A stretch of 64,000 nucleotides of DNA from Minisyncoccia bacterium. Its GTDB lineage: Bacteria > Patescibacteriota > Minisyncoccia > Phycocordibacterales > UBA9973. The notes beneath the pieces are model-generated. The model was not told where the DNA came from and made no database searches. It worked only from the letters and a program-made list of their open reading frames with translations. The DNA is taken from NCBI GenBank assembly GCA_039809265.1, contig JBDHUR010000003.1, positions 15,274 through 79,273 of the forward strand. The letters run 5' to 3'. The stretch's first letter is position 1; the number at the start of each line of letters is the position of its first letter. The position numbers were made by a program, and so were the translations under genes. Shown piece by piece: positions 2,508 through 58,925 of the stretch.

Positions 2508-3866
2508 ATGGCAAAAAATATTCTTCAAGATATAAAACCCCTCACAAGCAATGGCCGTCGCCGGCCAGTAGTCACGGAAGCCCCGCAGGAAATTTCTCCT
2601 TTACCAAGGAAAAAAGTGGAGCAGTATATAAATGTAGACGAGCCTACCCAGAATGTCAGCGTGTCTCGTCCTGTTTACAAAGATCCGGAAATGTCAGATA
2701 CAGTAAATCCACCTCGTCGTTCTCGCGGCAGGATTTGGACTATCGTTATACTTGTTTTGCTTGGCATGTTTGTTGCGCTTTCGTATGCGTTTGAGGAAGC
2801 AACCGTAGCTGTAACACCAAAAGTTGAGACGGTTACTTTGGACAACAATTTTACTGCCAAAAAGGACGCCCCAGATGGCGAACTGCCTTTTGAAGTTGTG
2901 GCGATATCTGGAGAAGAAAGTAAAACTTTCACCGGTACAGAGAAACGTGATGCAAATGATAAAGCTACAGGAAAGGTTGTTATTTATAACGAATATAGTA
3001 CCACCGCTCAAAATTTACTGATAGAAACTCGCCTTGAGACAAAAGATGGCAAAATATACAAGACAGACAAAGCTGTCAAAGTCCCAGGGTATACAAAAAA
3101 AGGTACTGACATCGTTCCTGGTTCTATAGAAGTTGGTGTTCATGCCGATGTCTCTGGCGAGGACTACAACATACCACCTTCAGACTTCACACTCATCGGT
3201 CTAAAGGGTAGCCCAAAATATACCAAGATTTACGCGCGTTCTTCCACTGCTATTTCTGGTGGTGCAAAAGGCGAGAGGTATATCCTGAGCAATGATGAAA
3301 AAGATAAGTCTACAGAGGAACTTATATCAGCCCTGAAAGATAAACTCCTCAAGCAGGCAGAAAGTCAGATACCGGATGGATTTGTGTACTATGACGGCGG
3401 GGTTTTCTTTGATATCGACGATTCTAACATGTCGTTTGAAAGCACTTCATCAACTATTACCGGCACCGCTAAAGGCAAGCTCTCTATGCTTTTATTTGAT
3501 CAAACAAAGCTTACTGAAGCTATTGCAAAAGCGGCGATTAGCCAGTATGATGGCACTCCTGTTACGATACCAGAACTGCATGATTTGAAGTTTGAATCCA
3601 AGACTGCTCAAGATGTAGATATAACTACTGCAACATCTGTACCGTTCAAGCTAAGCGGAGATACACATATCATTTCTGTCATAGATAGCGAAAAATTGGC
3701 TAGTGAGCTGGCTGGCAAGAACAAGAATACTGATGCCCAAACTGTCTTTGCATCTTGGAGCGGCATAGACTCTGCAGAGATATCTATGAGGCCTCTTTGG
3801 AAGAGAACTTTGCCTGAAAATCCGACAGATATAAAGATAAAAGTAGATGAAAGCCTGTCTCAATAA
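2508..3866 (+). CDS. bitopic membrane protein, hypothetical (Pro/Arg-rich cytoplasmic N-tail, single TM, large extracytoplasmic domain)
   Basis: 452 aa ORF starting 5 nt after the preceding gene. Hydrophobic segment IWTIVILVLLGMFVALSYAF. No recognisable catalytic motifs. Confidence 0.5.
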   Translation: MAKNILQDIKPLTSNGRRRPVVTEAPQEISPLPRKKVEQYINVDEPTQNVSVSRPVYKDPEMSDTVNPPRRSRGRIWTIVILVLLGMFVALSYAFEEATVAVTPKVETVTLDNNFTAKKDAPDGELPFEVVAISGEESKTFTGTEKRDANDKATGKVVIYNEYSTTAQNLLIETRLETKDGKIYKTDKAVKVPGYTKKGTDIVPGSIEVGVHADVSGEDYNIPPSDFTLIGLKGSPKYTKIYARSSTAISGGAKGERYILSNDEKDKSTEELISALKDKLLKQAESQIPDGFVYYDGGVFFDIDDSNMSFESTSSTITGTAKGKLSMLLFDQTKLTEAIAKAAISQYDGTPVTIPELHDLKFESKTAQDVDITTATSVPFKLSGDTHIISVIDSEKLASELAGKNKNTDAQTVFASWSGIDSAEISMRPLWKRTLPENPTDIKIKVDESLSQ

Positions 3867-3885
3867 TAGAAACTCACTTATAAAC

Positions 3886-3914
3886 TTGCAGAGTTTTAGC
3901 TTTTCTGTTAGAAT
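3886..3914 (+). promoter_or_regulatory. sigma70-like promoter upstream of infA (TTGCAG-17-TAGAAT)
   Basis: -35 TTGCAG at 3886-3891, 17 nt spacer, -10 TAGAAT at 3909-3914, 24 nt before the infA ATG. Confidence 0.45.
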
Positions 3915-3938
3915 AACCAAATCCATATAGATACACAC

Positions 3939-4160
3939 ATGAGCGGTTTTAATCAAGAGAAAATAGAGACAGTTACAGGAGTAGTCTCCGAGGCGCTTCC
4001 TAGCACTCTTTTTCGCGTTAAAACCAAAGATGATGCGGAAATCTTGGCTTACCTTTCAGGTAAGATGAGGATGAATCGCATCAAAGTTTTGGTGGGTGAT
4101 CGGGTGGAGATTGTCCTTGATCCGTATGGCGGAAAGGGGAGGATTGTCAAAAGGATGTAA
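3939..4160 (+). CDS. infA: translation initiation factor IF-1
   Basis: 73 aa S1-like OB protein, characteristic IF-1 sequence, conserved position upstream of rpmJ-rpsM. Confidence 0.9.
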   Translation: MSGFNQEKIETVTGVVSEALPSTLFRVKTKDDAEILAYLSGKMRMNRIKVLVGDRVEIVLDPYGGKGRIVKRM

Positions 4161-4197
4161 ATCGTGTATTATGAGCAGGCTGTGTACGCATAGCCTA

Positions 4198-4226
4198 TGA
4201 AAGGGTCAAAAACCCTTCATTTTTAA
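4198..4226 (+). terminator. hairpin plus T-run after infA (possible attenuator or terminator)
   Basis: gaaagggt-caaaaa-acccttc followed by attttt. Confidence 0.4.
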
Positions 4227-4244
4227 CTTAATTTTAGATACTGC

Positions 4245-4355
4245 ATGAAAGTAAGGTCACGAGTTTCAAAAATATGCGAGAAGTGCAAAATCGTAAAGCG
4301 CAAGGGTCATTTGCGTGTTATTTGCGATAATCCAAAGCACAAACAGAAACAGTAA
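4245..4355 (+). CDS. rpmJ: 50S ribosomal protein L36
   Basis: Not in ORF track (<60 aa). ATG at 4245 gives [36 protein letters not shown] with the CxxC...C...H zinc ribbon typical of L36. Located between infA and rpsM. Confidence 0.85.
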
Positions 4356-4368
4356 TTTTAGAAATATT

Positions 4369-4749
4369 ATGAGAATCCTAGGTATAACACTTCCAAATGA
4401 TAAACGCGTAGACATTGCCCTTACTACACTTTACGGTATAGGTATTTCAAAGGCGCATAAAATACTGGACGAAGTAAAGGTTGAATATGGCACCAAAACA
4501 AAAGACATTCCAAACGACCAAGAAGACAGTATCCGTAAGATAGTAGAGGGTTTAAAGATAGAAGGTAACTTGAAGCGAGAAGTTTCCGCAAATATAAAAA
4601 GACTGAAAGACATAAAGGCCTATCGCGGAGTGCGCCACCAGAGACAGCTTCCAACTAAAGGTCAGCGTACAAAGACAAACTCTCGTACAGTCCGAGGCAA
4701 TGTCAGAAAGACTATGTCCTCTGGTCGCCGAAAGGAAAGCAAGACTTAG
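4369..4749 (+). CDS. rpsM: 30S ribosomal protein S13
   Basis: Start trimmed from ORF-track 4315 to internal ATG (MRILGITLPNDKRVDIALTTLYGIG...). Conserved S13 sequence. Confidence 0.9.
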   Translation: MRILGITLPNDKRVDIALTTLYGIGISKAHKILDEVKVEYGTKTKDIPNDQEDSIRKIVEGLKIEGNLKREVSANIKRLKDIKAYRGVRHQRQLPTKGQRTKTNSRTVRGNVRKTMSSGRRKESKT

Positions 4750-8240: not shown

Positions 8241-9404
8241 TTGTCTGAGGTTGACGCTCTTATAGGTGAAGAAAATGACTTGCTGCTCTCTAACATAGAT
8301 GGTATGTACGAATATGCAAAAGAAGAAACCGGTAGTCATACACTGCCAGAGTTGTTAAAACTTGCCAGAGAAGAAAAAGAAAAATCAAAAAGAACTCAAA
8401 ATATAATACACCATGTTAAAACACTAGATACTCTAGAAGAAAAGATTGAAAAATTACGATACAATTTTCGCAGTAAAAACACAGGCACACACATAGATGA
8501 CAAAAGACTACTAAGCTGGGATAAAGCTGAAGAAAAAATAAACAATGAGCGTCTTAAATTGTCCGAGAATAAAGAGACATCGCACATTTCTCGTATGGTA
8601 GAACTTCTAAAGTACAAAGAGCAGGCGAAAGAAGGGTTTATAGAAACACCATCTAGGACAGATAAAAAGAAAGAGATTGTAAAACTCATGCGAGAATCTA
8701 AGAAAGGTATTTTCTTAGAAGGTAGCTCTGGTACAGGTAAAACACAGCTTTTACGACATATTGTAAAAAGTTTAGAAGGATATGAGCCAGAAATATTTGC
8801 TTCTACTGACCAATCTCGCGAATCAGATATCGTTGGCAAGACTGGATTAGATGTTAAAGATGGAGCAACTATTTCAAAGTTTAATGAAGGAATGCTTGTC
8901 CGTTCCATAACAGAAGGCCGTAAAGTTATTTTCGATGAATTTAATAATATGGAAAAAGGTTTGCGCTTATTATTAAAGCGTTACTTTGCCCTTAAACCAG
9001 GAGACACTTTTACTGTACCGCAAGATGGTAATACGATTTATACGGTAAAAGATGGTTTTAGAATATTAGCCACAGGCAACCTCCCAGGACCACATCACAC
9101 AGATCGTAACCCTCTCGGAGATGAAGAAACTAGAGAGTTTGAAATGCCTCATCTTGATCAAATGCCAGCAAATGAGATATACGACACACTTCTTGTTGCT
9201 TCTATGCGTGAAGATAAATCTGTTCCATATAGCAAAGACGAGGCTGAAACAACTCTTGCGAACTTAGCTAGGGCAATAAATGAAGCACACATTGCATATA
9301 CAGAAGGCAAGTCAGATTTCTTTGCAAGCGGAAATGTCCTGAAGGGTAAAAATCAAAGCCTAAAAAAGCAGTCCTTGACCCAGCACAATATCTTTCTTGG
9401 GTAG
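8241..9404 (+). CDS. AAA+ ATPase, AAA_5 (MoxR/McrB/dynein-related) type, with charged coiled-coil N-terminal region; start codon uncertain; possibly frameshift-joined to the next ORF
   Basis: Walker A GSSGTGKT, Walker B VIFDEF, sensor-1-like ILATGN. Frame is open from 8103 with no ATG until 8302. ORF-track start is TTG at 8241. Confidence 0.6.
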   Translation: MSEVDALIGEENDLLLSNIDGMYEYAKEETGSHTLPELLKLAREEKEKSKRTQNIIHHVKTLDTLEEKIEKLRYNFRSKNTGTHIDDKRLLSWDKAEEKINNERLKLSENKETSHISRMVELLKYKEQAKEGFIETPSRTDKKKEIVKLMRESKKGIFLEGSSGTGKTQLLRHIVKSLEGYEPEIFASTDQSRESDIVGKTGLDVKDGATISKFNEGMLVRSITEGRKVIFDEFNNMEKGLRLLLKRYFALKPGDTFTVPQDGNTIYTVKDGFRILATGNLPGPHHTDRNPLGDEETREFEMPHLDQMPANEIYDTLLVASMREDKSVPYSKDEAETTLANLARAINEAHIAYTEGKSDFFASGNVLKGKNQSLKKQSLTQHNIFLG

Positions 9405-9433
9405 AAGGGTATAAAAATCAAACAAAACAATCA

Positions 9434-10399
9434 TTGCCGGAATATTTATGTGAGAAAATAGCCTTTTTTGCCGGCAATGGAGATTTTCCAGAAAACGACA
9501 GAAATCTATTATTTAAGATCTTTCAAAGGTTTGGCTTTATGAATGGAGCTACTAACATATCTCGCTTCGGTGTTACCGAAGAAGAAGCAGAAGCACTTGT
9601 TTGGCAGTCAAAACTCGTATATGAAAAACCATCACTCCGCAACTTACCAATTGAAGAAATATCAAAACTTGACCCATTTAAAATGCGACAGATCAAAGAA
9701 GATAAGTTGATTGAAGACTTTATTGCTCAAAACCAGACAAAAGAACAGAAAGAAATATTGAATAACTTTTCTGAACAAGGGCAAATTTTAACTAAAAAGA
9801 AAAAAGAGAAGTTCACACAAGAAATCGACACCTTCTGGCGAGATACATACACAAATGACTGGTCATTGAACAATCAAGACTTATCAAAAGTAAAATTCAC
9901 TCCAGAATTCTTAAAGCCAGAAGAAATAAAATGGCAAGATATAGCTAAAGCAAAAGATGATCCAAAAGAATTTGGTAAATATATTACAAACCCAGAAACA
10001 GCTTTACTTGATTATGAGAAACTAGGTAAACCAGAGATATATAATCCAAATGAAGATATAGATTTGGATAAATGGTTAGAGAAGAATAAACTAAAGAAAA
10101 ACCCCGCATCTGTTATGCAATACGTTGCAGAGAAATTCAGTAAAACATACTATCTTCCTGGAATAGAGTATCAAAAATACCTATTTGAAAACCAGAAAAA
10201 GAAAGGAGTAATACCTGAAGAATTAAAAGATGGTAATTGGTACTACTTTCCAGGTGCGTCTTTCCGCGGCTCAGATGGCAGTTGGTGCGTGCCATTTGGC
10301 AGCTGGAACTCTAGTGGTTCGTTTTGGGAGCGCAGTGGTAATTGGACTAGTCTTGGCTGGAATGACCACGAGCGTGTTCTGCTCCTCGGGAAGAAATAG
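9434..10399 (+). CDS. hypothetical protein with Trp/Gly-rich C-terminus (possibly the C-terminal part of the preceding AAA+ protein)
   Basis: 321 aa ORF with only a TTG start and no RBS. The same frame is coding-like upstream to 9350. C-terminal GNWYYFPGASFRGSDGSWCVPFGSWNSSGSFWERSGNWTSLGWNDHE. Confidence 0.4.
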   Translation: MPEYLCEKIAFFAGNGDFPENDRNLLFKIFQRFGFMNGATNISRFGVTEEEAEALVWQSKLVYEKPSLRNLPIEEISKLDPFKMRQIKEDKLIEDFIAQNQTKEQKEILNNFSEQGQILTKKKKEKFTQEIDTFWRDTYTNDWSLNNQDLSKVKFTPEFLKPEEIKWQDIAKAKDDPKEFGKYITNPETALLDYEKLGKPEIYNPNEDIDLDKWLEKNKLKKNPASVMQYVAEKFSKTYYLPGIEYQKYLFENQKKKGVIPEELKDGNWYYFPGASFRGSDGSWCVPFGSWNSSGSFWERSGNWTSLGWNDHERVLLLGKK

Positions 10400-11817: not shown

Positions 11818-12339
11818 TTATTTTCCAAAAGTTTCAAACAAGACTTTTTCGGTTTCAATGTCAAGCGAGTCTGTTGTTAAAATCATGATTTCAGTCGTTA
11901 ATCCTAGATCATTTTTAATATTTGTAAACAGGTGCTCAAAAGGGTATGGGGAAATCCATGCAGAATTTTTAAGACAGATAAATCCGGCCTTTTTTAATAG
12001 ATAACGGAGACTTTCACGTTCGTTTTTGCGGGCCTCTGGCAGGTCTAGCAGTACCACTCGCCATTTGCCATCCCATGCGGCTGGTACAGGCATAGTGCCA
12101 TCTGTTAGCTCCAGTGAAGCCAGCTTTTTCTTGCCAACCGGCGTAATACGCAAATAATGCCCTTGTGGAGAGGCAAATTCCTCGGCAAGGCCATTTTCCA
12201 CCATGCCACGTACAGCGCGGTTTATAGCGTATTTTGACGCTTTTTCTTGCCCTTTATCCACAAGCTCGGCTGTTTTTACCACCTTTTTGCGTCCAAGGGC
12301 TCGGAGTATGCTATGTTGTGGATTTTTCCTGCTTGACAT
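11818..12339 (-). CDS. PaaX-family-like winged-helix transcriptional regulator (putative)
   Basis: 173 aa; N-terminal wHTH-like segment, C-terminal WDGKWRVVLLDLPEARKNERESLRYLLKKAGFICLKNSAWISP resembling the PaaX C-domain. Convergent with grpE. Confidence 0.35.
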   Translation of the reverse strand: MSSRKNPQHSILRALGRKKVVKTAELVDKGQEKASKYAINRAVRGMVENGLAEEFASPQGHYLRITPVGKKKLASLELTDGTMPVPAAWDGKWRVVLLDLPEARKNERESLRYLLKKAGFICLKNSAWISPYPFEHLFTNIKNDLGLTTEIMILTTDSLDIETEKVLFETFGK

Positions 12340-14370: not shown

Positions 14371-15216
14371 ATGACAAAAGATTACTACAAAATTCTTGGC
14401 GTAGAGAAGAATGCTTCGCAGGATGATATCAAAAAAGCGTTCCGAAAAATGGCGCATCAATATCATCCTGATAAAAACAAAGGCGATGATTCAAAATTCA
14501 AAGAAATAAATGAAGCTTACCAAACTCTTTCCGACAAAAAGAAGCGTGCACAGTACGACCAGTTTGGCAATGCGTACGCCTCTGGCGGTATGGGTAGCGG
14601 ACAAGGTTTTAGTGGTTTTGATTTTTCTGGCTTTCAGAACGGTAGCAGTTTTGATATGGGAGATATAGGAGATATATTTTCAGACTTTTTTGGTGGCGGT
14701 ATGACAAGCCAACAGCGTACTAGACGAGGTAGAGATTTATCTACAGAAATCATACTTACTTTTACGGAAGCTATTTTAGGCACAGAGAAAACTATATCTA
14801 TATCAAAACAGTCTACTTGTGATACATGTAAAGGTATTGGTGCAAAGCCTGGCACAAAACTGAAGACTTGCACAAAATGTAAAGGTCAAGGAAAATTAAG
14901 AGAAGCTCGCAGAACTATTTTAGGGACTTTTGAAAATATTGTGGTTTGTAGCGATTGTTATGGAGAAGGCAAGATTCCAGAAGAAAAATGTACTACATGT
15001 AGAGGAGATGGTATACACAAGAAAGAGCAAAAAATAAAGCTTATTATACCTCCCGGTACAAATAATAACGAAACATTAAAAGTTCCTGGTTATGGCGAAG
15101 CTGTCTCACATGGTAAAACAGGCGACTTATATGTGAAAATCAACATTAAGAAACCCAACAAGATTTCTAACCGCGCAAAGGAAGCTTTAGAGGTTTTAAG
15201 AGAGGAGGGGATATAA
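14371..15216 (+). CDS. dnaJ: chaperone DnaJ (short form: J domain, G/F region, CxxCxGxG zinc finger, shortened C-terminal domain)
   Basis: 281 aa; DYYKILGV...HPD J-domain, four CxxCxG repeats. Confidence 0.8.
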
Positions 15217-15223
15217 TAATAAA

Positions 15224-15258
15224 GACCAGTTGGCGCAAGGCTTACTGGTTTTTGTTTT
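15224..15258 (+). terminator. terminator after dnaJ
   Basis: accagt-N13-actggt followed by ttttgtttt. Confidence 0.5.
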
Positions 15259-15282
15259 AAATATATGGTATAATGAAAATCT

Positions 15283-16344
15283 ATGAAAAAAGAAATTTTT
15301 TATAAACCTGTATTCTTAAAGAATGAAATAGAGCTCAAGAAAATGCTCAAACAAAAACCTTATATAAGTTTTGTTGATGCTTTTAGTGATCAGTTAAAGG
15401 AACTATTTTTTATAGAAAATCATAAATATATAGGAGAAGATAAAAATAAAATTTATTCCAGCGAAGTTTTTAAAAAATATTGTTTTAAAAAAGCAAAAAG
15501 TTTTAAATATGTTTATTATCCATGGAATCACACTATAGTAAAAACTGTTCCAAAAGAAGCATACTGGAAATTAAAGACGAATAGAAATCAAGATCTCATA
15601 ACTATAAACGAACAAAAGAAATTGAAAGATTTCTCTGTAGGGGTTTTTGGTATGAGTGTAGGTAGTAATATAGCTTTTGTGTTAACACAGGCAGGGATTT
15701 CAAATTCAATAACAATAGCAGATTTTGATGAGTTAAGCACTACAAATTTAAATCGTATACTGGCTGGTGTGCATCAAGTTGGTTTAAATAAAACAGTGAT
15801 AGCTGCTCGTAGAATATATGAAGATAATCCATTTGCAAATGTGAAAACTATGCTATCTGGTGTCTCTATAAAAAACTTAGAATCTCTATTAAAAAAAGGA
15901 AAATTGAAATGTATCATAGAGGAAATAGACAATATTCCAATGAAGGTTGAGGTCAGGGTGCTCGCGATGAAGTACAAAATCCCAGTTATAATGATTACCG
16001 ACAATGGAGATGGCGTTGTGTTGCATGTGGAAAGGTATGATAAAAACCTTAAAACTATATTTAATAAACCACTCACATATTGGAAGACATTTTTAGGTGA
16101 TAATATAACTAAGGAAAAAATAGGGAAAATAATTATTGAAGATATTTTTGGGGGAGCTCAAAATGCATCATTAAGAGTTATAGATTCTGTACAGAAAGTT
16201 TTTAATAAAGAAATTATCTCATGGCCACAACTTGGTAGCGCGGCAATTCTTGGTGGCGTTATCAGTACTATAATCATAAAAAAAATTGTTAATAAAGAAG
16301 AAATGCCAAACTCATTTGTTAAACATATACAACATGAATTATGA
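15283..16344 (+). CDS. E1-like / ThiF-MoeB-family adenylyltransferase with ~100 aa N-terminal extension
   Basis: 353 aa; Rossmann VGVFGMSVGSNIAFVLTQAGI, IADFDELSTTNLNRI (ThiF-type DxD...NLNRQ-like). Low-GC sequence. TGA stop overlaps next ATG (ATGA). Confidence 0.7.
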   Translation: MKKEIFYKPVFLKNEIELKKMLKQKPYISFVDAFSDQLKELFFIENHKYIGEDKNKIYSSEVFKKYCFKKAKSFKYVYYPWNHTIVKTVPKEAYWKLKTNRNQDLITINEQKKLKDFSVGVFGMSVGSNIAFVLTQAGISNSITIADFDELSTTNLNRILAGVHQVGLNKTVIAARRIYEDNPFANVKTMLSGVSIKNLESLLKKGKLKCIIEEIDNIPMKVEVRVLAMKYKIPVIMITDNGDGVVLHVERYDKNLKTIFNKPLTYWKTFLGDNITKEKIGKIIIEDIFGGAQNASLRVIDSVQKVFNKEIISWPQLGSAAILGGVISTIIIKKIVNKEEMPNSFVKHIQHEL

Positions 16345-17390
16345 AAATAGATATATCTAAAAATCCAGAGTTTGATAATCACGAATTAGTCTCATGGTTT
16401 GAAGATTCAAGTCTCGGGTTACGTGGATTTATTGTTGTGCATAACACAAACATGGGTCCTGCTGTTGGTGGTACTAGATATTGGATTTATAAAAATGAAA
16501 ATGAAGCTATAACTGATGCTCTAAGATTATCTCGTTCGATGACCTATAAATGTGCTCTTGCAGGTGTGCCATTTGGTGGTGGAAAAGGTGTCATTATTGC
16601 AGATAGTAAGACTGTAAAAACCAAGCAGTTTTTACAGTCTTATGCAAAAAAAGTTTCTCTTCTTGGAGGCAATTTTTATACAGGAGAAGATGTTGGTTTA
16701 ACACTAGAAGATATAAATTGTATGGCTTCTAGTTCTAGATTTATTATTGGCAGTAATAATAAAGCAGGAGATCCTTCTCCGTGGGCTGCGCTAAGTGTTT
16801 TTTATGCAATGAAAGCAGCTCTTTATCAAATATATAAAAATTGTGATTTTTCTAGTAAAAAAATTGCAATTAAAGGTCTAGGTAAAGTTGGTATGGAGTT
16901 GGCGAGATTACTCTATAAAGAAGGTGCTGAATTATTTGTAAGCGACATAGATAAACTAAAGATTAATGAAATTAAATCATGGGGCGATCGAATAAATGTA
17001 GCATCAGTTAAGAATATTCATAAATTAAATGTTGATATTTATGCACCATGCGCAATGGGTGGAGATCTTACTGAAAGAAAAATAAATGAACTTAATTGTA
17101 AAATTATTTGCGGCTCAGCAAACAATCAACTTGAACGTACAGAAAATGCTAATATTTTATATAAACGAAATATTTTATATATTCCAGATTATCTTGCTAA
17201 TTCTGGTGGTTTAATAAATGTTGTTGCAGAACTCGAGACCAAAGGATATAGTAAGGATAAAGTATTTACTAGGGTACAAAAGATTGAAGAAACAACGAGA
17301 AAAGTGCTTGTCATGTCTCTTGAAATGCAGTGCTCTCCAAATGAAGTTGTTAATAAGCTTGCCCAGGATTTATTTATGAAAAATAATTAG
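16341..17390 (+). CDS. Glu/Leu/Phe/Val-dehydrogenase-family amino-acid dehydrogenase (Leu/Phe-dehydrogenase-like)
   Basis: 349 aa; GPAVGGTRYW and GGGKGVI catalytic-domain motifs, GLGKVGMELA NAD(P)-binding glycine motif. Confidence 0.75.
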   Translation: MKIDISKNPEFDNHELVSWFEDSSLGLRGFIVVHNTNMGPAVGGTRYWIYKNENEAITDALRLSRSMTYKCALAGVPFGGGKGVIIADSKTVKTKQFLQSYAKKVSLLGGNFYTGEDVGLTLEDINCMASSSRFIIGSNNKAGDPSPWAALSVFYAMKAALYQIYKNCDFSSKKIAIKGLGKVGMELARLLYKEGAELFVSDIDKLKINEIKSWGDRINVASVKNIHKLNVDIYAPCAMGGDLTERKINELNCKIICGSANNQLERTENANILYKRNILYIPDYLANSGGLINVVAELETKGYSKDKVFTRVQKIEETTRKVLVMSLEMQCSPNEVVNKLAQDLFMKNN

Positions 17391-17391
17391 T

Positions 17392-18867
17392 ATGGATAAA
17401 AAAGTTCAAAAAATTATCAAAGAATATGCTACAAAAAACTCAAATTATTGGAGACGAGTAGCAAAAAAACAAAGAGATAAGACAGTTTTTCTTGCGCAAA
17501 AAGAAAGCTCTGCTTATCGTATAAAATATAAAAAATATCATATAGATAAAAATTTCTGTTTTGAAGATCTGCCTACTGTTGATAAAGCAAATTTTCTTAA
17601 AAAAAATACGATGAATCAACTGCTTTGTGGTGGCCTGAATCAACCTCTTGTTTTTACTTCAACTTCTGGTTCTACTGGTGAGCCATATTATTTTCCTCGC
17701 AAAGAAAACCTGGATTTGCAATATTCTATATTAGTTGAACAATTCTTAAAACAAGGAGAAAACAAAGGAAAGAAACCAGCTCTGGTTTTGATATGTTTTG
17801 GTATGGGAGTATGGATTGGTGGAATAATTACATATCAAGCATTTATGATGGCTTCTCGTCGTGGGAAGTATCCTGTCTCAATACTAACTCCAGGAATAAA
17901 TATGGAAGAAATTCTTAAAGCGTTAAGAAAACTTTCTCCTCAATTTTCTGAAACAATTATTATTGGATATCCTCCTTTTGTAAAAGATATAATTGATCAG
18001 GCTCTATTTAATAATATACCCATAAAACAATTAAATATCCGTTTAATGTTTGCAGCTGAAGTTTTTACAGAAGACTTCAGAGATTATTTAGTAAAAAAAG
18101 TTACAATAAACAATATTTATCGTGATACTCTCAGTGTGTACGGGAGCGCTGATGTCGCAGCTATGGCATGGGAAACAGGAATTTCTGTTTTAATTAAAAG
18201 ACTGTTAAAATCTAAACTAGAAATTTTTAAGTATTTCTTTGGGGAAACTCAAAAAATGCCTACAATTGCTCAATATAATCCTAATTTTATCTATTTTGAA
18301 TCACTTAATAATGAAATTCTTTTAACAGCTGAAAGCGCCATACCACTCGTCCGTTATGCAATAGGTGATAGAGGACGAACTTTCACATATAAAGAAATTG
18401 ATGATGGTTTACGTTTGTTTGGAGTCAATTTAACCAAAGAAGCAAAGAAGGTTGGAATATCGGACATCAATTATCAACTACCATTTGTTTGCATATTTGA
18501 GAGAAATGATTTTTCAACTACTATTTATGGATTACAAATATATCCAGAATTAATACGCGAAGCACTTTCTCAAGAAAAAGTAAGTAATATTCTTACTGGT
18601 AAATTTGTGTTCCAAACAAAATTTGATAAAAACCAAGATCAATATTTAGAAATTAATATTGAATGCGCTGTTAATGTGGATCCATCAACTATTGATGTTG
18701 GATTATTAACTCAGACTATTAGTTCTTTTCTTACAATAAAAAGTTCCGAATTTGCTGAATTAATTAAATACGTTAAAAATAGACCCCTGATACAAATAAT
18801 TCTTTGGACATATGGTCATGATAAGTATTTTAAATTAGGAATTAAACAGAAATGGGTGGTAAAATAA
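17392..18867 (+). CDS. adenylate-forming enzyme, phenylacetate-CoA ligase / coenzyme F390 synthetase (PaaK-like) family
   Basis: 491 aa; P-loop-like FTSTSGSTGEPYYF matching the (S/T)SG(S/T)TGxP motif of PaaK/F390-synthetase-type ANL enzymes. Starts 2 nt after the previous stop. Confidence 0.65.
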   Translation: MDKKVQKIIKEYATKNSNYWRRVAKKQRDKTVFLAQKESSAYRIKYKKYHIDKNFCFEDLPTVDKANFLKKNTMNQLLCGGLNQPLVFTSTSGSTGEPYYFPRKENLDLQYSILVEQFLKQGENKGKKPALVLICFGMGVWIGGIITYQAFMMASRRGKYPVSILTPGINMEEILKALRKLSPQFSETIIIGYPPFVKDIIDQALFNNIPIKQLNIRLMFAAEVFTEDFRDYLVKKVTINNIYRDTLSVYGSADVAAMAWETGISVLIKRLLKSKLEIFKYFFGETQKMPTIAQYNPNFIYFESLNNEILLTAESAIPLVRYAIGDRGRTFTYKEIDDGLRLFGVNLTKEAKKVGISDINYQLPFVCIFERNDFSTTIYGLQIYPELIREALSQEKVSNILTGKFVFQTKFDKNQDQYLEINIECAVNVDPSTIDVGLLTQTISSFLTIKSSEFAELIKYVKNRPLIQIILWTYGHDKYFKLGIKQKWVVK

Positions 18868-18871
18868 GATT

Positions 18872-19933
18872 ATGGAAAATGATTTTATTTTAAAAATTGT
18901 TTCTGCTGGAGGCATGGCTCCGTCTGGAGATAATATGCAGCCATGGAAGACAACATGGGATGGAGAGACGCTCCGTTTGTATTTAGAAAAAAAAGCAGAT
19001 ACTTCTGTTTATAACACAGATGAATGTGGATCTTATATTGCATGTGGCGCTTTTATTGAAAACGTTAGATTGATGGCAGCGTCATTGGGGTATGCAGCAA
19101 ATATTTCTTTTTTTCCTAATACAACAACAGATCCATTTTATATTGCAAATATTATTTTTATTAAAAATACACCTACTGAATTAGAAACTGCTTCTTTTAT
19201 CAACAAAAGACATTCAAACAGAAAAAAATATTTCAAAAAAGAAATACCATCGGAATTAATCTCTATCTTTAATTTAATTGATCCATCTGTTAAAATTATT
19301 ACAGATAAATTTTTAAGAAATACTATCTTTGATATAGCTAGTTTAAATGAATATTTTATCCTACATAATAATCATGTTAGAAATGGTCTTATGAAGACTA
19401 TTCGTTGGAGCTCAAATGAAGAAGAAATTAGTCGTACTGGTTTATTTTTTAAAACACTTGAACTTAATTTAGGTCAATTATTTTTCTTTCGGAGATTTAC
19501 CAAACCTTTTTTTGTTAAAATCTTAAATTTTTTAGGTTTTCCAAAAATTTTACAAAAATCTGCAAAAAATCTATATTCAACATCATCAGCTGTAGGAGCT
19601 ATCACAATTAAAAGTATGAGCCCCCAAGATTTAGTATCTGCAGGTATTGTTATAGAAAAGATTTGGCTTATAGCAACAGAAAAAGGATTAGCTTTCCAGC
19701 CGATAACTGGTATTCCTTATTTGATTTCTGCGATGAATAAAAATTCAAAAATATTTTCTATAAATGAACAAAAATTATTAAAAGATGCTGATTTTTCTTT
19801 AAGGAAAATATTTAAGCTGCCTCCATTAGATCAATTTGGTATGATATTTAGATTAGGTTATGCTAATAAAGCAAGCGCTATTTCTAAAAGGAAATCCATT
19901 CATTCATTTCATGAATTTATAAATAATCTATGA
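18872..19933 (+). CDS. tandem nitroreductase-fold flavoprotein (SagB/McbC-like dehydrogenase or double nitroreductase)
   Basis: 353 aa; N-terminal APSGDNMQPW nitroreductase FMN-site motif. A second RHSNRKY start-of-domain motif at about residue 113. Confidence 0.65.
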   Translation: MENDFILKIVSAGGMAPSGDNMQPWKTTWDGETLRLYLEKKADTSVYNTDECGSYIACGAFIENVRLMAASLGYAANISFFPNTTTDPFYIANIIFIKNTPTELETASFINKRHSNRKKYFKKEIPSELISIFNLIDPSVKIITDKFLRNTIFDIASLNEYFILHNNHVRNGLMKTIRWSSNEEEISRTGLFFKTLELNLGQLFFFRRFTKPFFVKILNFLGFPKILQKSAKNLYSTSSAVGAITIKSMSPQDLVSAGIVIEKIWLIATEKGLAFQPITGIPYLISAMNKNSKIFSINEQKLLKDADFSLRKIFKLPPLDQFGMIFRLGYANKASAISKRKSIHSFHEFINNL

Positions 19934-21567
19934 TTTTTAATCTCGAAATTAACATATCTTTAGTCATCGTTGGTTTAGCAATCGCAATCAGTTTGATACT
20001 TGGTGCTATTGTTTTTTTAAGCAATATTCGGAGCTATACAAACATTGCATTCGCTATCTTTTCTATTCTATCTATTTCCTGGAATGTATTAAATTTTCTT
20101 TTTTATCAACCACATGATAGTACTGCTGTAGCCTTATTACTACTCCGTCTTCAGGTTTTTTTTGCTATCTGGTATTGTTTCGCATTACTGATTCTTTTTT
20201 ATATATTTCCAAAAGAAAAGACTGATATAAAAAAATGGTATAAATTTGGAATATTGCCATTGACTATTATTGTTTCATTTATGACTCTTACACCACTTGT
20301 ATTTAAACAAGTAACAAAACTAGATAGTTTGGGTAGAGTTGCTAGTGTTGAAAATAATTGGGGCGTTATAATTTTTGGAATAACTGTAACTACCATATTA
20401 GGCATAGCTTTTGTTAATCTGGTTAATAAATTCCAAAAATCTTATAAAGAAGAAAAGAAAAAATTAAGTCTGATACTAATAGGAGCAACAACAACTTTTA
20501 TTTTTCATATTATATTTAATATGATATTGCCTAGTTTTTTTGAAATAAGTAAATTTACTGAATTCGGAGCACTTTTTACTTTACCATTTAGTGCGTTAAC
20601 AGCATACGCAATCATAAAATTTAAATTATTTAATGTAAAAGTTGTTTCTGCTGAGTTGTTGGCTTTTATCTTATGGATTTTTATTTTCATTAGAATTTTG
20701 ATAGCAGAAAATCTAAGAGAACAATTCATAAATAGTATTATGTTTGTAGTTGTTGTTATTGTTGGAATTTTCCTTATCCGTTCTGTTTTAAGAGAGGTTG
20801 ATCAACGTGAAAAACTTGCAAAACTAGCAAACGAGCTTGAAACATCTAATGAAAAACTAAAATCTTTAGATACATTAAAAACAGAATTTTTATCATTAGC
20901 ATCTCATCAGTTACGAAGTCCGTTGACCGCAATAAAAGGTTACTCTTCCATGCTTCTAGAGGGCTCTTATGGGGTTTTGGCAGATACTACCCAGCGTGAG
21001 GCGATAGAAAGGATATTCCAATCCAGTACAGCTTTAGCAAAAACTGTAGAAGATTTCTTAAACGTTTCCAAGATAGAACAGGGTGGGATGAAATATGAAT
21101 TTGATGAAATAGATATATCTAAACTTGCAGAAGAGATAGTAAACGAATTGTTAGTATCAGCAGAGTCAAGAGGATTGAAGCTTACTTTCAGTACTATAGA
21201 CAAGGGCCCTTATATTGCTAGAGTTGATGCAAACAAGATACGCCAAGTGTTACTGAACTTTATAGACAACGGCATAAAATATACAAAAGAAGGTTTTGTA
21301 AGCGTGCGTGTAGGTAGAGATAGTGATAGTAAAAAAATAATTTTCTCAGTGGAAGACTCTGGTATGGGCATGACTCCAGAAATAAAATCACAACTTTTCC
21401 AAAAATTTTCTAGAGGTAATGGTGCGAGAATGAATACCGGTGGATCAGGATTAGGGCTTTATCTTGCAAAAGAAATAGTGAGGGCACACAATGGTACTGT
21501 AAATGTAAGCTCTCCTGGGCTTGGCAAAGGATCTACTTTTTATGTGACTCTACCAGCTTTAGGGTAG
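19930..21567 (+). CDS. polytopic membrane sensor histidine kinase (no periplasmic domain; HisKA plus HATPase_c)
   Basis: 545 aa; about 8 TM helices. H-box LASHQLRSPLTAIKGY; N, G1 and G2 boxes (DNGIKY, EDSGMGM, GGSGLGLYLAKEIV). ATGA overlap with the upstream gene. Confidence 0.8.
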   Translation: MIFNLEINISLVIVGLAIAISLILGAIVFLSNIRSYTNIAFAIFSILSISWNVLNFLFYQPHDSTAVALLLLRLQVFFAIWYCFALLILFYIFPKEKTDIKKWYKFGILPLTIIVSFMTLTPLVFKQVTKLDSLGRVASVENNWGVIIFGITVTTILGIAFVNLVNKFQKSYKEEKKKLSLILIGATTTFIFHIIFNMILPSFFEISKFTEFGALFTLPFSALTAYAIIKFKLFNVKVVSAELLAFILWIFIFIRILIAENLREQFINSIMFVVVVIVGIFLIRSVLREVDQREKLAKLANELETSNEKLKSLDTLKTEFLSLASHQLRSPLTAIKGYSSMLLEGSYGVLADTTQREAIERIFQSSTALAKTVEDFLNVSKIEQGGMKYEFDEIDISKLAEEIVNELLVSAESRGLKLTFSTIDKGPYIARVDANKIRQVLLNFIDNGIKYTKEGFVSVRVGRDSDSKKIIFSVEDSGMGMTPEIKSQLFQKFSRGNGARMNTGGSGLGLYLAKEIVRAHNGTVNVSSPGLGKGSTFYVTLPALG

Positions 21568-58853: not shown

Positions 58854-58925
58854 TGAGTGTGGAAGGAATCGGACCTTCGACCTCTGTCTTATCAGGACAG
58901 CGTTCTACCACTGAACTACACACTC
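58854..58925 (-). tRNA. tRNA-Ile (anticodon GAT)
   Basis: Hand-folded cloverleaf: acceptor GAGTGTG/CACACTC, D-arm GTTC-AGTGGTA-GAAC, anticodon stem CTGTC/GACAG with loop CTGATAA, T-arm GAAGG-TCCGATT-CCTTC, discriminator A. No encoded CCA. Confidence 0.7.

Follow-up and report, generated by a model that had tools for sequence, protein, structure and literature searches.

Bacterial oxazolone synthases have been known only since 2021, and the papers that describe them suspect a physiological role of the products in signalling or stress. The founding oxazolone synthetase consists of the fusion protein OxzB together with OxzA and uses Tyr/Phe; for its product, a role as a labile signal linked to stress was suggested (bioRxiv 10.1101/2020.06.11.147165). 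In Mycobacterium tuberculosis, the split enzymes TyzB and TyzC act with TyzA on Tyr/Phe substrates to give tyrazolones (PMC10404671). In 2025, Rv1355c was described as TrzS, in which a ThiF-like domain carries out ATP-dependent cyclisation and a flavin-dependent oxidase (FDO) domain O2-dependent desaturation, converting the N-acyl-tryptophan made by TrzA into N-acyl tryptazolones (PMC12856293). Acid and methanol hydrolyse such oxazolones (PMC12856293). Clusters that combine NAS, ThiF and nitroreductase genes yield N-acyl dehydrotyrosines in Pseudomonadota, Actinomycetota and Planctomycetota (PMC12479983). All characterised oxazolone clusters include an N-acyltransferase (PMC12856293, PMC10404671, PMC12479983, bioRxiv 10.1101/2020.06.11.147165), and according to a 2025 review, OxzB alone among ThiF-like enzymes is known to have a small-molecule substrate (PMC12596934). 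The likeness of these compounds to acyl-homoserine lactones (AHLs) is remarked on in the oxazolone papers themselves. Here we describe a five-gene operon (15283-21567) of a Minisyncoccia bacterium, a member of the Patescibacteria (candidate phyla radiation, CPR), and compare it with these systems. The window is the whole 64-kb stretch that was analysed (assembly GCA_039809265.1, contig JBDHUR010000003.1, positions 15,274 to 79,273), and coordinates are window positions unless a related locus is named.

The operon comprises five open reading frames (ORFs) called on the forward strand. They encode a ThiF/E1-like protein (protein 1, 353 aa, 15283-16344), an ELFV dehydrogenase (protein 2, 349 aa, 16341-17390), a PaaK-fold ligase (protein 3, 491 aa, 17392-18867), a nitroreductase-fold flavoprotein (protein 4, 353 aa, 18872-19933) and, as the final gene, a HisKA_7TM histidine kinase (545 aa, 19930-21567). 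The ORF list and the junction sequence bear out the tight packing reported in the initial annotation of this DNA: the first two genes and the last two overlap by ATGA (at 16341 and 19930, respectively), whereas 1 nt (17391) separates the second gene from the third and 4 nt (18868-18871) the third from the fourth. We put the chance at about even that the operon specifies a ligase-dependent form of the bacterial pathway to oxazolones (azlactones of N-acyl dehydro-amino acids), and that this pathway is linked genetically to a sensor kinase in the membrane. This reading starts from the gene content, the homology to both halves of TrzS, the intact catalytic motifs, the PaaK fold of the ligase and the conserved linkage of the genes.

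The ThiF-like and nitroreductase-fold proteins correspond to the two halves of TrzS

Protein 1 contains a Pfam ThiF domain at residues 104-338 and matches the NCBIfam model of the Rv1355c family over model positions 26-325 (219.8 bits, E 6e-65), whereas the runner-up ThiF model reaches at most 62.3 bits. The Rv1355c-family model has 722 positions and an equivalog cut-off of 476 bits, which is out of reach for a half-length protein. Protein 4 has a Pfam Nitroreductase domain and matches the same model at positions 374-717 with 161.9 bits, next to 165 bits for PRK14851 and 117 bits for the Acg family; it also matches PDB entry 2ymv (E 2e-7). Since proteins 1 and 4 lie on successive stretches of one model, they represent the two halves of one known fusion architecture, here with two genes between them. 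By their sequences, protein 1 is a homologue of the N-terminal (cyclase) half of Rv1355c/TrzS and protein 4 of its C-terminal half, within the FDO/Acg group. Protein 1 is predicted to be an ATP-dependent cyclodehydratase and protein 4 a C-alpha/C-beta desaturase. The majority-type ThiF proteins of CPR score higher than protein 1 on the Rv1355c-family model (299-312 bits), and in one related locus (L012) the scores of ThiF and flavoprotein sum to about 500 bits, over the cut-off.

Conservation of motifs was counted over 72-85 family members per enzyme. In the ThiF family, residues G123/G127, D147/D149, N155/N157/R158, K170 and D216 are conserved in 75-79 of 82 members. Asp216, within the EEIDN motif, is found in all 75 sequences without a gap at this position and is probably the counterpart of TrzS-Msmeg D217, judging from the E1 motif rather than from an alignment. 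There is no conserved cysteine in the family, suggesting that these enzymes are adenylation-only, as expected of a cyclase. The N-terminal extension of about 100 residues that was proposed for protein 1 is real: the Pfam domain starts at residue 104, and residues 1-105 fold confidently in the AlphaFold2 (AF2) model (pLDDT about 95, versus 87.8 for the whole protein). The extension, in which Pfam finds no domain, is homologous to the N-terminal part of the Rv1355c model and has no sequence match to the RiPP (ribosomally synthesised and post-translationally modified peptide) recognition element (RRE) clamp of MccB/PaaA. Its secondary structure runs beta-alpha-beta-alpha-alpha-alpha-beta-beta-alpha, whereas the RRE has three strands followed by three helices. 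The model of protein 1 has AclA (9egb) as its top fold match, along with ThiF, MoeB, PaaA, MccB and TcdA. Superposition on MccB is restricted to the core (alignments of about 250 columns), with longer or full-length alignments being poor (root-mean-square deviation (rmsd) 11-13 A). As a side observation, AclA from Tenacibaculum discolor (PDB 9egb/9egc/9egd) is a ThiF-type structure of 2025 solved 'in complex with substrate' and may be a further small-molecule ThiF enzyme relevant to the CPR family; its function was not found in the literature searched.

In protein 4, the motif APSGDNMQPW occupies residues 16-25, as originally noted, while the second motif, given before as RHSNRKY, in fact reads RHSNRKKY (residues 113-120). 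The generalised motif A-P-S-x-x-N-x-Q-P-W and R113/R117 are conserved in 68-72 of 72 homologues. The description of protein 4 as a tandem nitroreductase is correct in the sense of the single-chain pseudo-dimer of the Acg/FDO group, given the matches to NCBIfam Acg, to the C-terminal half of Rv1355c and to 2ymv. An internal-repeat test of the protein was weak (hhalign E 0.002, probability 14%).

Conservation of the gene cluster

Two samples of related loci were analysed. The first took the ligase as its anchor and a single genome for each GTDB species; here 291 stretches matched the search pattern and 252 encoded a relative; the best 80 of the 252 were taken as loci and their gene content was scored with family profiles derived from the loci (well-flanked subset, n = 47). 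The second consisted of metagenome contigs anchored on the window-type ThiF (n = 80, of which 21 were well flanked). The gene set recurs in the 80 species-representative genomes and the 80 metagenome contigs. In the well-flanked ligase-anchored loci, the ligase (LIG) is accompanied by ThiF in 47 of 47 cases, by the histidine kinase (HK) in 43, by the nitroreductase-fold oxidase (NR) in 40 and by the dehydrogenase (DH) in 30. The 21 well-flanked ThiF-anchored loci contain LIG and DH in 18 cases each, HK in 14 and NR in 13. DH is thus an accessory gene, present in about two thirds of the clusters; among the 30 well-flanked ligase-anchored loci with a DH gene, it immediately precedes LIG in 27. 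All cluster genes of the ligase-anchored loci are on the same strand, with a median intergenic gap of 4 bp, but their order varies, with at least 16 arrangements. DH-LIG-ThiF-NR-HK is seen most often, and the order of the window, ThiF-DH-LIG-NR-HK, is the commonest within the window-type ThiF subfamily. That gene order is shuffled while adjacency is kept is strong evidence for functional linkage. The comparison of gene neighbourhoods suggested in the initial annotation thus comes out strongly positive, the genes recurring jointly in both anchored samples.

The 80 ligase-anchored loci are labelled as Patescibacteria or as unclassified 'bacterium' metagenome-assembled genomes, except for two labelled Gammaproteobacteria, which are probably mis-binned. 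When the neighbouring ORFs of these loci were clustered de novo, receivers, tRNA synthetases, DnaJ/K and ABC transporters recurred; the only recurrent neighbour outside housekeeping functions is a stand-alone receiver domain. No acyltransferase is recurrent among the neighbouring ORFs of the 80 loci, and neither is YcaO or SagB. Short ORFs (12-75 aa) were surveyed in the 500-bp flanks and internal gaps of the 80 loci and the window, and none was conserved, in agreement with the earlier failure to find a convincing precursor ORF.

Several loci show further variation. Clusters with intact genes are split by unrelated insertions of 1-5 kb in L003 (10608-12419; same genome as L043), L014, L026, L035, L060, L063 and L066, the insertions including a GmrSD restriction gene, TruD, dihydroorotate dehydrogenase, radical SAM and peptidase genes. 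A hidden acyltransferase in interrupted clusters was considered and rejected, because nothing was recurrent among the 10 inserted genes scanned: Pfam identified TruD, dihydroorotate dehydrogenase, radical SAM, S9 peptidase, ROK, GTP cyclohydrolase II, alpha/beta hydrolase and M19 dipeptidase, and two genes had no match. An anti-phage defence system was likewise rejected, since PADLOC returned only generic E1-domain (at most 40 bits) and weak HATPase matches. Two subtypes of ThiF are found in the clusters, the window-type encoded upstream of the ligase and the majority-type downstream. The clusters are also served by two NR subtypes, one TrzS/PRK14851-like (in the window and in L012, 12682-13791) and one closest to Acg (183-191 bits). 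The Acg-like NR was present in both examples scanned, L036 (11492-12535, order LIG-NR-ThiF) and L004 (4292-5314, window-type order). The closest relative of the window ThiF, 97% identical, is encoded on a 3-kb metagenome contig (L084, 868-1926; WBZM01026942.1), followed by P0001 and P0121 (93-94%). Identity then drops to 81% (ThiF) and about 53% (ligase), suggesting that the lineage of the window is sparsely sampled.

The PaaK-fold ligase and the dehydrogenase

Protein 3 has no match in a Pfam search. Its AF2 model (pLDDT 83.4) is nevertheless closest in Foldseek to PaaK1, PaaK2 and BT_0428 (E 1e-20 to 1e-22), with E 7e-22 and TM scores of 0.63/0.71 for PaaK1 (2y27). ClxA, AjiA1 and 6siw, a 'PaaK family AMP-ligase', are next (E 1e-15 to 1e-17). 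A profile of the ligase family matches PaaK2 in the PDB (E 1.4e-9). The window protein carries TSGSTGEP, and the adenylation motifs TSGSTGxP (A3), YG(S/T)AD (A5) and GDxG as well as the C-terminal Lys485 are invariant in 83-85 of 85 members. The earlier assignment as a PaaK-like ligase therefore stands on fold and ANL adenylation motifs, although Pfam was silent. At equivalog level, the window ligase matches no PaaK model, and the relative in L012 scores about 40 bits against equivalog cut-offs of 646-700. More than 1,500 homologues of the ligase were found, and all those with a taxon name are from Patescibacteria. In L078, a contig of 5.4 kb, two copies of the ligase with equal scores are inverted relative to each other (955-2460, + strand; 2971-4476, - strand), probably reflecting an assembly artefact or an inverted duplication.

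Members of the PaaK family are known that bond the acyl-adenylate directly, as an amide or ester, namely ClxA, described as an 'amide ligase' (PMC12519233, PMC9400959), and NatL2 (PMC7204872). We propose that protein 3 is an ATP-dependent N-acyl-amino-acid synthetase in place of the acyltransferase. An N-acyltransferase is absent from the clusters and the ligase is present in all 80 ligase-anchored loci, so the latter would replace the former.

Protein 2 contains the Pfam domains ELFV_dehydrog_N and ELFV_dehydrog, both above cut-off, and aligns end to end with Nostoc tryptophan dehydrogenase (TrpDH; 5b37, E 4e-77) and with leucine dehydrogenase (LeuDH; 3vpx, E 7e-73). Together with the catalytic GGGK, whose lysine is kept in 46 of 47 homologues, this marks an NAD(P) amino-acid dehydrogenase of the Leu/Phe/Trp type, in agreement with the Leu/Phe-type dehydrogenase named in the initial annotation. 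The NCBIfam model of ScyB gives 308 bits, short of its cut-off of 600. In the substrate pocket, Gly115 is present in 47/47 and Leu291 in 43/48 cluster-linked homologues. We take these positions, from the mutagenesis literature, to be those that separate LeuDH (Ala113/Val291) from phenylalanine dehydrogenase (PheDH; Gly/Leu). The Gly115/Leu291 pair thus points to an aromatic or bulky substrate, and a PheDH/TrpDH-like pocket fits the aromatic amino acids of all known oxazolone pathways.

The sensor kinase and stand-alone receivers

The kinase contains the Pfam domains HisKA_7TM (residues 16-236, 29.9 bits versus a cut-off of 28.6), HisKA (317-385) and HATPase_c (433-543). Hydropathy analysis yields eight strong hydrophobic segments, corresponding to 8-9 transmembrane (TM) helices, connected by loops of at most 21 aa with a single exception of 41 aa. 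These short loops indicate that the kinase lacks a periplasmic domain, in agreement with the topology of about eight helices first suggested. Across 50 homologues, the TM domain is conserved as much as the catalytic core, with W51, G185 and E289 being invariant, and the kinase is the final gene in most cluster orders. Stand-alone CheY-like receivers (about 130 aa) are encoded in 29 of the 80 loci, as one or two tandem copies that usually adjoin the leading cluster gene; overall, about a third of the relatives have one to three such genes directly beside it (for example, L045 218-1033, L048 8734-9953 and L076 5296-6080). They are likely to be the phosphorylation partners of the kinase.

The kinase may detect the product of the pathway. 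In the Vibrio pairs CqsA/CqsS and LuxM/LuxN, the gene of the signal synthase adjoins that of a multi-TM kinase, which senses its ligand in the membrane and has no periplasmic domain. It is possible, though doubtful, that the CPR cluster is a self-contained signal module of a comparable kind, in which a ligase-built, labile, AHL-like oxazolone would serve as an autoinducer and the 7TM kinase with the receivers as its receptor. If so, it would be the first intrinsic chemical signalling system between cells, or between symbiont and host, described in CPR/Patescibacteria, and would supply the first identified receptor and physiological role for oxazolones.

A putative ligase-dependent oxazolone pathway

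The proposed pathway has five steps. The Phe/Trp-type dehydrogenase would first convert an aromatic or bulky amino acid into its 2-oxo acid or back, so that either the amino-acid acceptor or an acyl donor of the arylpyruvate type becomes available; because one third of the clusters lack DH, this step would be accessory. We infer that the ligase then adenylates a carboxylic acid and attaches it to the amino nitrogen of the amino acid; the resulting N-acyl amino acid would require neither CoA nor an acyltransferase. By homology to TrzS/TyzB, the ThiF-like enzyme would next adenylate the carboxylate of the N-acyl amino acid, whereupon the amide oxygen would close the 5(4H)-oxazolone ring. The FMN oxidase, again by homology, would desaturate the C-alpha/C-beta bond, leaving a conjugated oxazolone, which hydrolysis could turn into an N-acyl dehydro-amino acid. 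Finally, and speculatively, the kinase could sense the hydrophobic, hydrolytically labile product in an autoinducer-like loop, or could control the operon. Its membrane domain would be the sole sensor module, and in many relatives its signal would pass to one or two stand-alone receiver proteins whose genes lead the operon. The amide-forming role of the ligase, the identity of the substrates and the ligand of the kinase are the conjectural elements of this scheme. In outline, it retains the earlier suggestion that the E1-like protein, the flavoprotein, the ligase and the dehydrogenase make an amino-acid-derived small molecule. Production and sensing in cis, also suggested earlier, would be compatible with the genetic coupling to a polytopic kinase.

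Several observations weigh against this pathway. The summed score of ThiF and NR in the window, 382 bits, is under the curated Rv1355c cut-off of 476 bits. Seven of the 47 well-flanked loci have no detectable NR and four have no HK, and no receiver or response regulator is detectable within the 64-kb window. FDO desaturation is O2-dependent in the known systems, and many CPR bacteria live in anoxic settings. Finally, the ligase could be an ordinary acyl-CoA ligase feeding an acyltransferase encoded elsewhere.

Alternative explanations

The alternative that survives best, although we consider it unlikely, retains the enzymes but assigns them a different product, such as a cofactor, an envelope component or a nucleoside modification of the ct6A type, with the kinase simply adjusting operon expression to an unrelated cue from the membrane or the host. 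The best sequence match of the ThiF core among solved structures is indeed TcdA, a t6A dehydratase (E 5.5e-8), but the TrzS model beats the TcdA, ThiF and MoeB models by 150-250 bits, and the chemistry of TcdA, cyclodehydration of an N-acylated amino-acid carboxylate, follows the same logic as oxazolone formation (PMC12596934). The functions of the Acg family, whose members replace the TrzS-like NR in some clusters, are unknown, and the top fold match of ThiF, AclA, is without a function in the literature searched. Against this, every characterised pair of ThiF and FDO yields oxazolones or dehydro-N-acyl amino acids.

An operon for the catabolism or salvage of aromatic amino acids is improbable. 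In such an operon, DH would make arylpyruvate and the PaaK-like enzyme would handle arylacetate or arylacetyl-CoA, with the kinase sensing an external amino acid and ThiF and NR being auxiliary. An ELFV dehydrogenase and a PaaK fold are classic parts of aromatic amino-acid and phenylacetate catabolism, and a PaaX_M-domain protein is encoded 3 kb upstream (11818-12339). However, that protein has no homologue in 83 related loci, and the invariant partner of the ligase is ThiF (47/47) rather than the dehydrogenase (30/47). The ligases score at most 40 bits on PaaK equivalog models with cut-offs near 650, and genes for 2-oxoacid oxidoreductases or decarboxylases, ring oxygenases or thioesterases are not recurrent.

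Equally improbable, in our estimate, is that the AT-rich block is a recently acquired horizontal island, as the initial annotation inferred from its base composition. The observation itself is correct: the GC content of the cluster is 0.305, versus 0.401 in the remaining window, and it changes abruptly at the edges with dnaJ (0.377) and cysS (0.425), dnaK having 0.429. The block also has terminator and promoter candidates of its own, described below. Yet the cluster is slightly AT-richer than its flanks in 61 of 70 relatives (mean -0.027, Wilcoxon p 3e-9), so the dip is partly a trait of the family. With -0.096, the window is an outlier among the relatives, for which reason in-situ replacement by a lower-GC CPR allele is conceivable. 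Gene order speaks for stability. The dnaJ gene lies immediately upstream of the cluster in 11 GTDB and 6 metagenome loci; genes for GrpE, DnaK, tryptophanyl-tRNA synthetase, an ABC transporter and aspartyl-tRNA synthetase recur nearby in the relatives, as in the window. The synteny grpE-dnaK-dnaJ-[cluster] is found even in relatives with about 45-65% protein identity, which argues for long residence rather than recent acquisition. All relatives of the cluster proteins are from Patescibacteria, and no integrase, tRNA or repeat boundary was seen. Given this conserved synteny and the family-wide AT-richness, the inference of a horizontally acquired island was not upheld.

The weakest proposal, also made in the initial annotation, is RiPP-like machinery of the thiazole/oxazole-modified microcin (TOMM) or microcin kind, with the E1-like enzyme adenylating the C-terminus of a ribosomal peptide (as in MccB, PaaA or the TOMM C-protein) and NR being of SagB/McbC type; it is very improbable, because the superposition of the ThiF core on PaaA and MccB (Foldseek E 1e-9 to 1e-8), a weak sequence match to MccB in the PDB (E 2e-4), the real and folded N-terminal extension and the nitroreductase superfamily shared with SagB/McbC are outweighed by the lack of any YcaO, SagB, ocin_ThiF_like or cyclodehydratase match among the five proteins (Pfam, NCBIfam), by a best family, TrzS, that is a small-molecule enzyme and leads by a wide margin, by the alignment of the extension to the Rv1355c N-terminus and the poor full-length superposition on MccB, and by the absence of a precursor ORF, small-ORF families being confined to at most 3 of 80 loci, where they are antisense fragments, in clusters with 4-bp median gaps, and the 10-codon ORF of the window not being conserved.

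Operon boundaries and neighbouring genes

Directly 3' of the dnaJ stop codon, on the forward strand, lies a terminator-like stem-loop followed by a U-run (15218-15256). It has an RNA folding energy of -19.2 kcal/mol (z = -5.6), and 0 of 200 shuffled sequences folded as well; it looks like an intrinsic terminator that parts dnaJ from the operon. A putative extended -10-like promoter element, TGGTATAAT (15266-15274, + strand), was recognised by eye 8 nt 5' of the first ATG. It has no -35 match, and a scan for hexamer pairs did not call it. Going by the position of this element, the operon mRNA may be leaderless or near-leaderless. The stem-loop and TGGTATAAT together suggest that the five-gene block is a separate transcription unit. 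A simple promoter and terminator scan was uninformative in this AT-rich DNA, with 31 promoter-like sites versus 35.7 expected and the stem-loop at 15218-15256 unlisted. The 10-codon ORF MKIYEKRNFL, pointed out earlier at the start of the operon, does exist (ATG at 15273) but has no conserved counterpart in related loci. At the other end, an 11-nt spacer separates the kinase gene from the convergent cysS.

Some further features of the surroundings deserve mention. The DnaJ encoded upstream of the operon (14371-15216) has just 281 aa, whereas relatives in the same position have about 358 aa (for example, L006 3252-4328); it lacks about 77 aa between 'GDLYVKINI' and 'KKPNKIS', which correspond to the region of C-terminal domain II. 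The PaaX_M (Cas2-like) protein mentioned above has 173 aa and is encoded on the - strand between grpE and dnaK, 5 kb from the PaaK-like ligase; its candidacy as regulator of the operon was rejected for want of homologues in the 83 related loci. A second patch of low GC content (0.34-0.36) at 8241-10399 contains a gene for an AAA_5 (dynein-related/McrB-like) ATPase followed by a 321-aa ORF without Pfam match. These may be an McrBC-like restriction pair, for which PADLOC matches are weak. One tRNA gene (58854-58925, - strand) is the sole Rfam match at gathering threshold in the window.

Significance and comparison with known systems

Patescibacteria are ultra-small and have biosynthetically poor genomes, and in this phylum the pathway would be rebuilt on an ATP-dependent ligase instead of an acyl-CoA/ACP acyltransferase. 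That genomes of about 1 Mb have kept a 6-kb operon in at least 250 species speaks for the importance of the operon to the lifestyle of these organisms. It suggests that CPR bacteria, whose host interactions are poorly understood, have a conserved capacity for signalling or secondary metabolism. The cluster is coupled to one of the few sensor kinases of these bacteria, and this kinase is a concrete candidate for an oxazolone receptor. A CoA-independent route to N-acyl amino acids is also suggested, which would be of biocatalytic interest. Literature searches returned no description of this cluster in Patescibacteria, nor a ligase-based or kinase-coupled oxazolone pathway.

The closest described system is TrzAS (Rv1356c-Rv1355c) of Mycobacterium/Rhodococcus (Kleetz et al. 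2025, PMC12856293). It shares with the window the ThiF-like cyclase, including the N-terminal extension, the FDO desaturase and probably the ATP-binding Asp and Arg, which are conserved in the CPR family, and its aromatic amino-acid logic fits a Trp/Phe-type dehydrogenase. In the window, however, the two domains are encoded by separate genes with two others between them. In place of the acyl-CoA N-acyltransferase TrzA, which is missing, there is always a PaaK-fold ligase; the gene set further includes a dehydrogenase and a 7TM histidine kinase, and the host belongs to Patescibacteria. TyzACB (Grigg et al. 2023, PMC10404671) resembles the window in having stand-alone ThiF (TyzB) and FDO (TyzC) proteins encoded with overlaps or very short spacers. 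The products of TyzACB and of the Thalassotalea, Massilia and Stieleria clusters (PMC12479983) are oxazolones or N-acyl 2,3-dehydro-amino acids. Unlike the window, these systems need an N-acyl amino-acid synthase or acyltransferase (TyzA, NasY), and no ligase, dehydrogenase or kinase is reported as their conserved partner. In OxzAB of Pseudoalteromonas rubra (de Rond et al.), it is likewise the co-occurrence of ThiF and nitroreductase that defines the chemistry. OxzB, by contrast, is fused, the N-acyltransferase OxzA is encoded upstream, and the system is confined to Proteobacteria and has no sensor kinase.

For the ligase, the nearest counterparts are ClxA, NatL2 and AjiA1, which share the PaaK scaffold and form amide or ester bonds without CoA, the acyl-adenylate being joined directly to an amine or phenol. 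Their identity to the CPR ligase is only about 14-16%; the CPR family is about 60 aa longer and is without a Pfam or NCBIfam equivalog, and the substrates of the three enzymes are aminohydroxybenzoates of benzoxazole pathways. CqsA/CqsS and LuxM/LuxN resemble the CPR cluster in placing the synthesis of a small hydrophobic signal beside a polytopic kinase, a likeness that is a general analogy only. The chemistry of the Vibrio pairs is different and their kinases are hybrid and feed LuxU/LuxO, whereas the CPR kinases have only stand-alone receivers, in some genomes. Compared with all these systems, what is most likely new here is oxazolone-synthase chemistry in a fourth phylum, with another first step and a dedicated sensor kinase.

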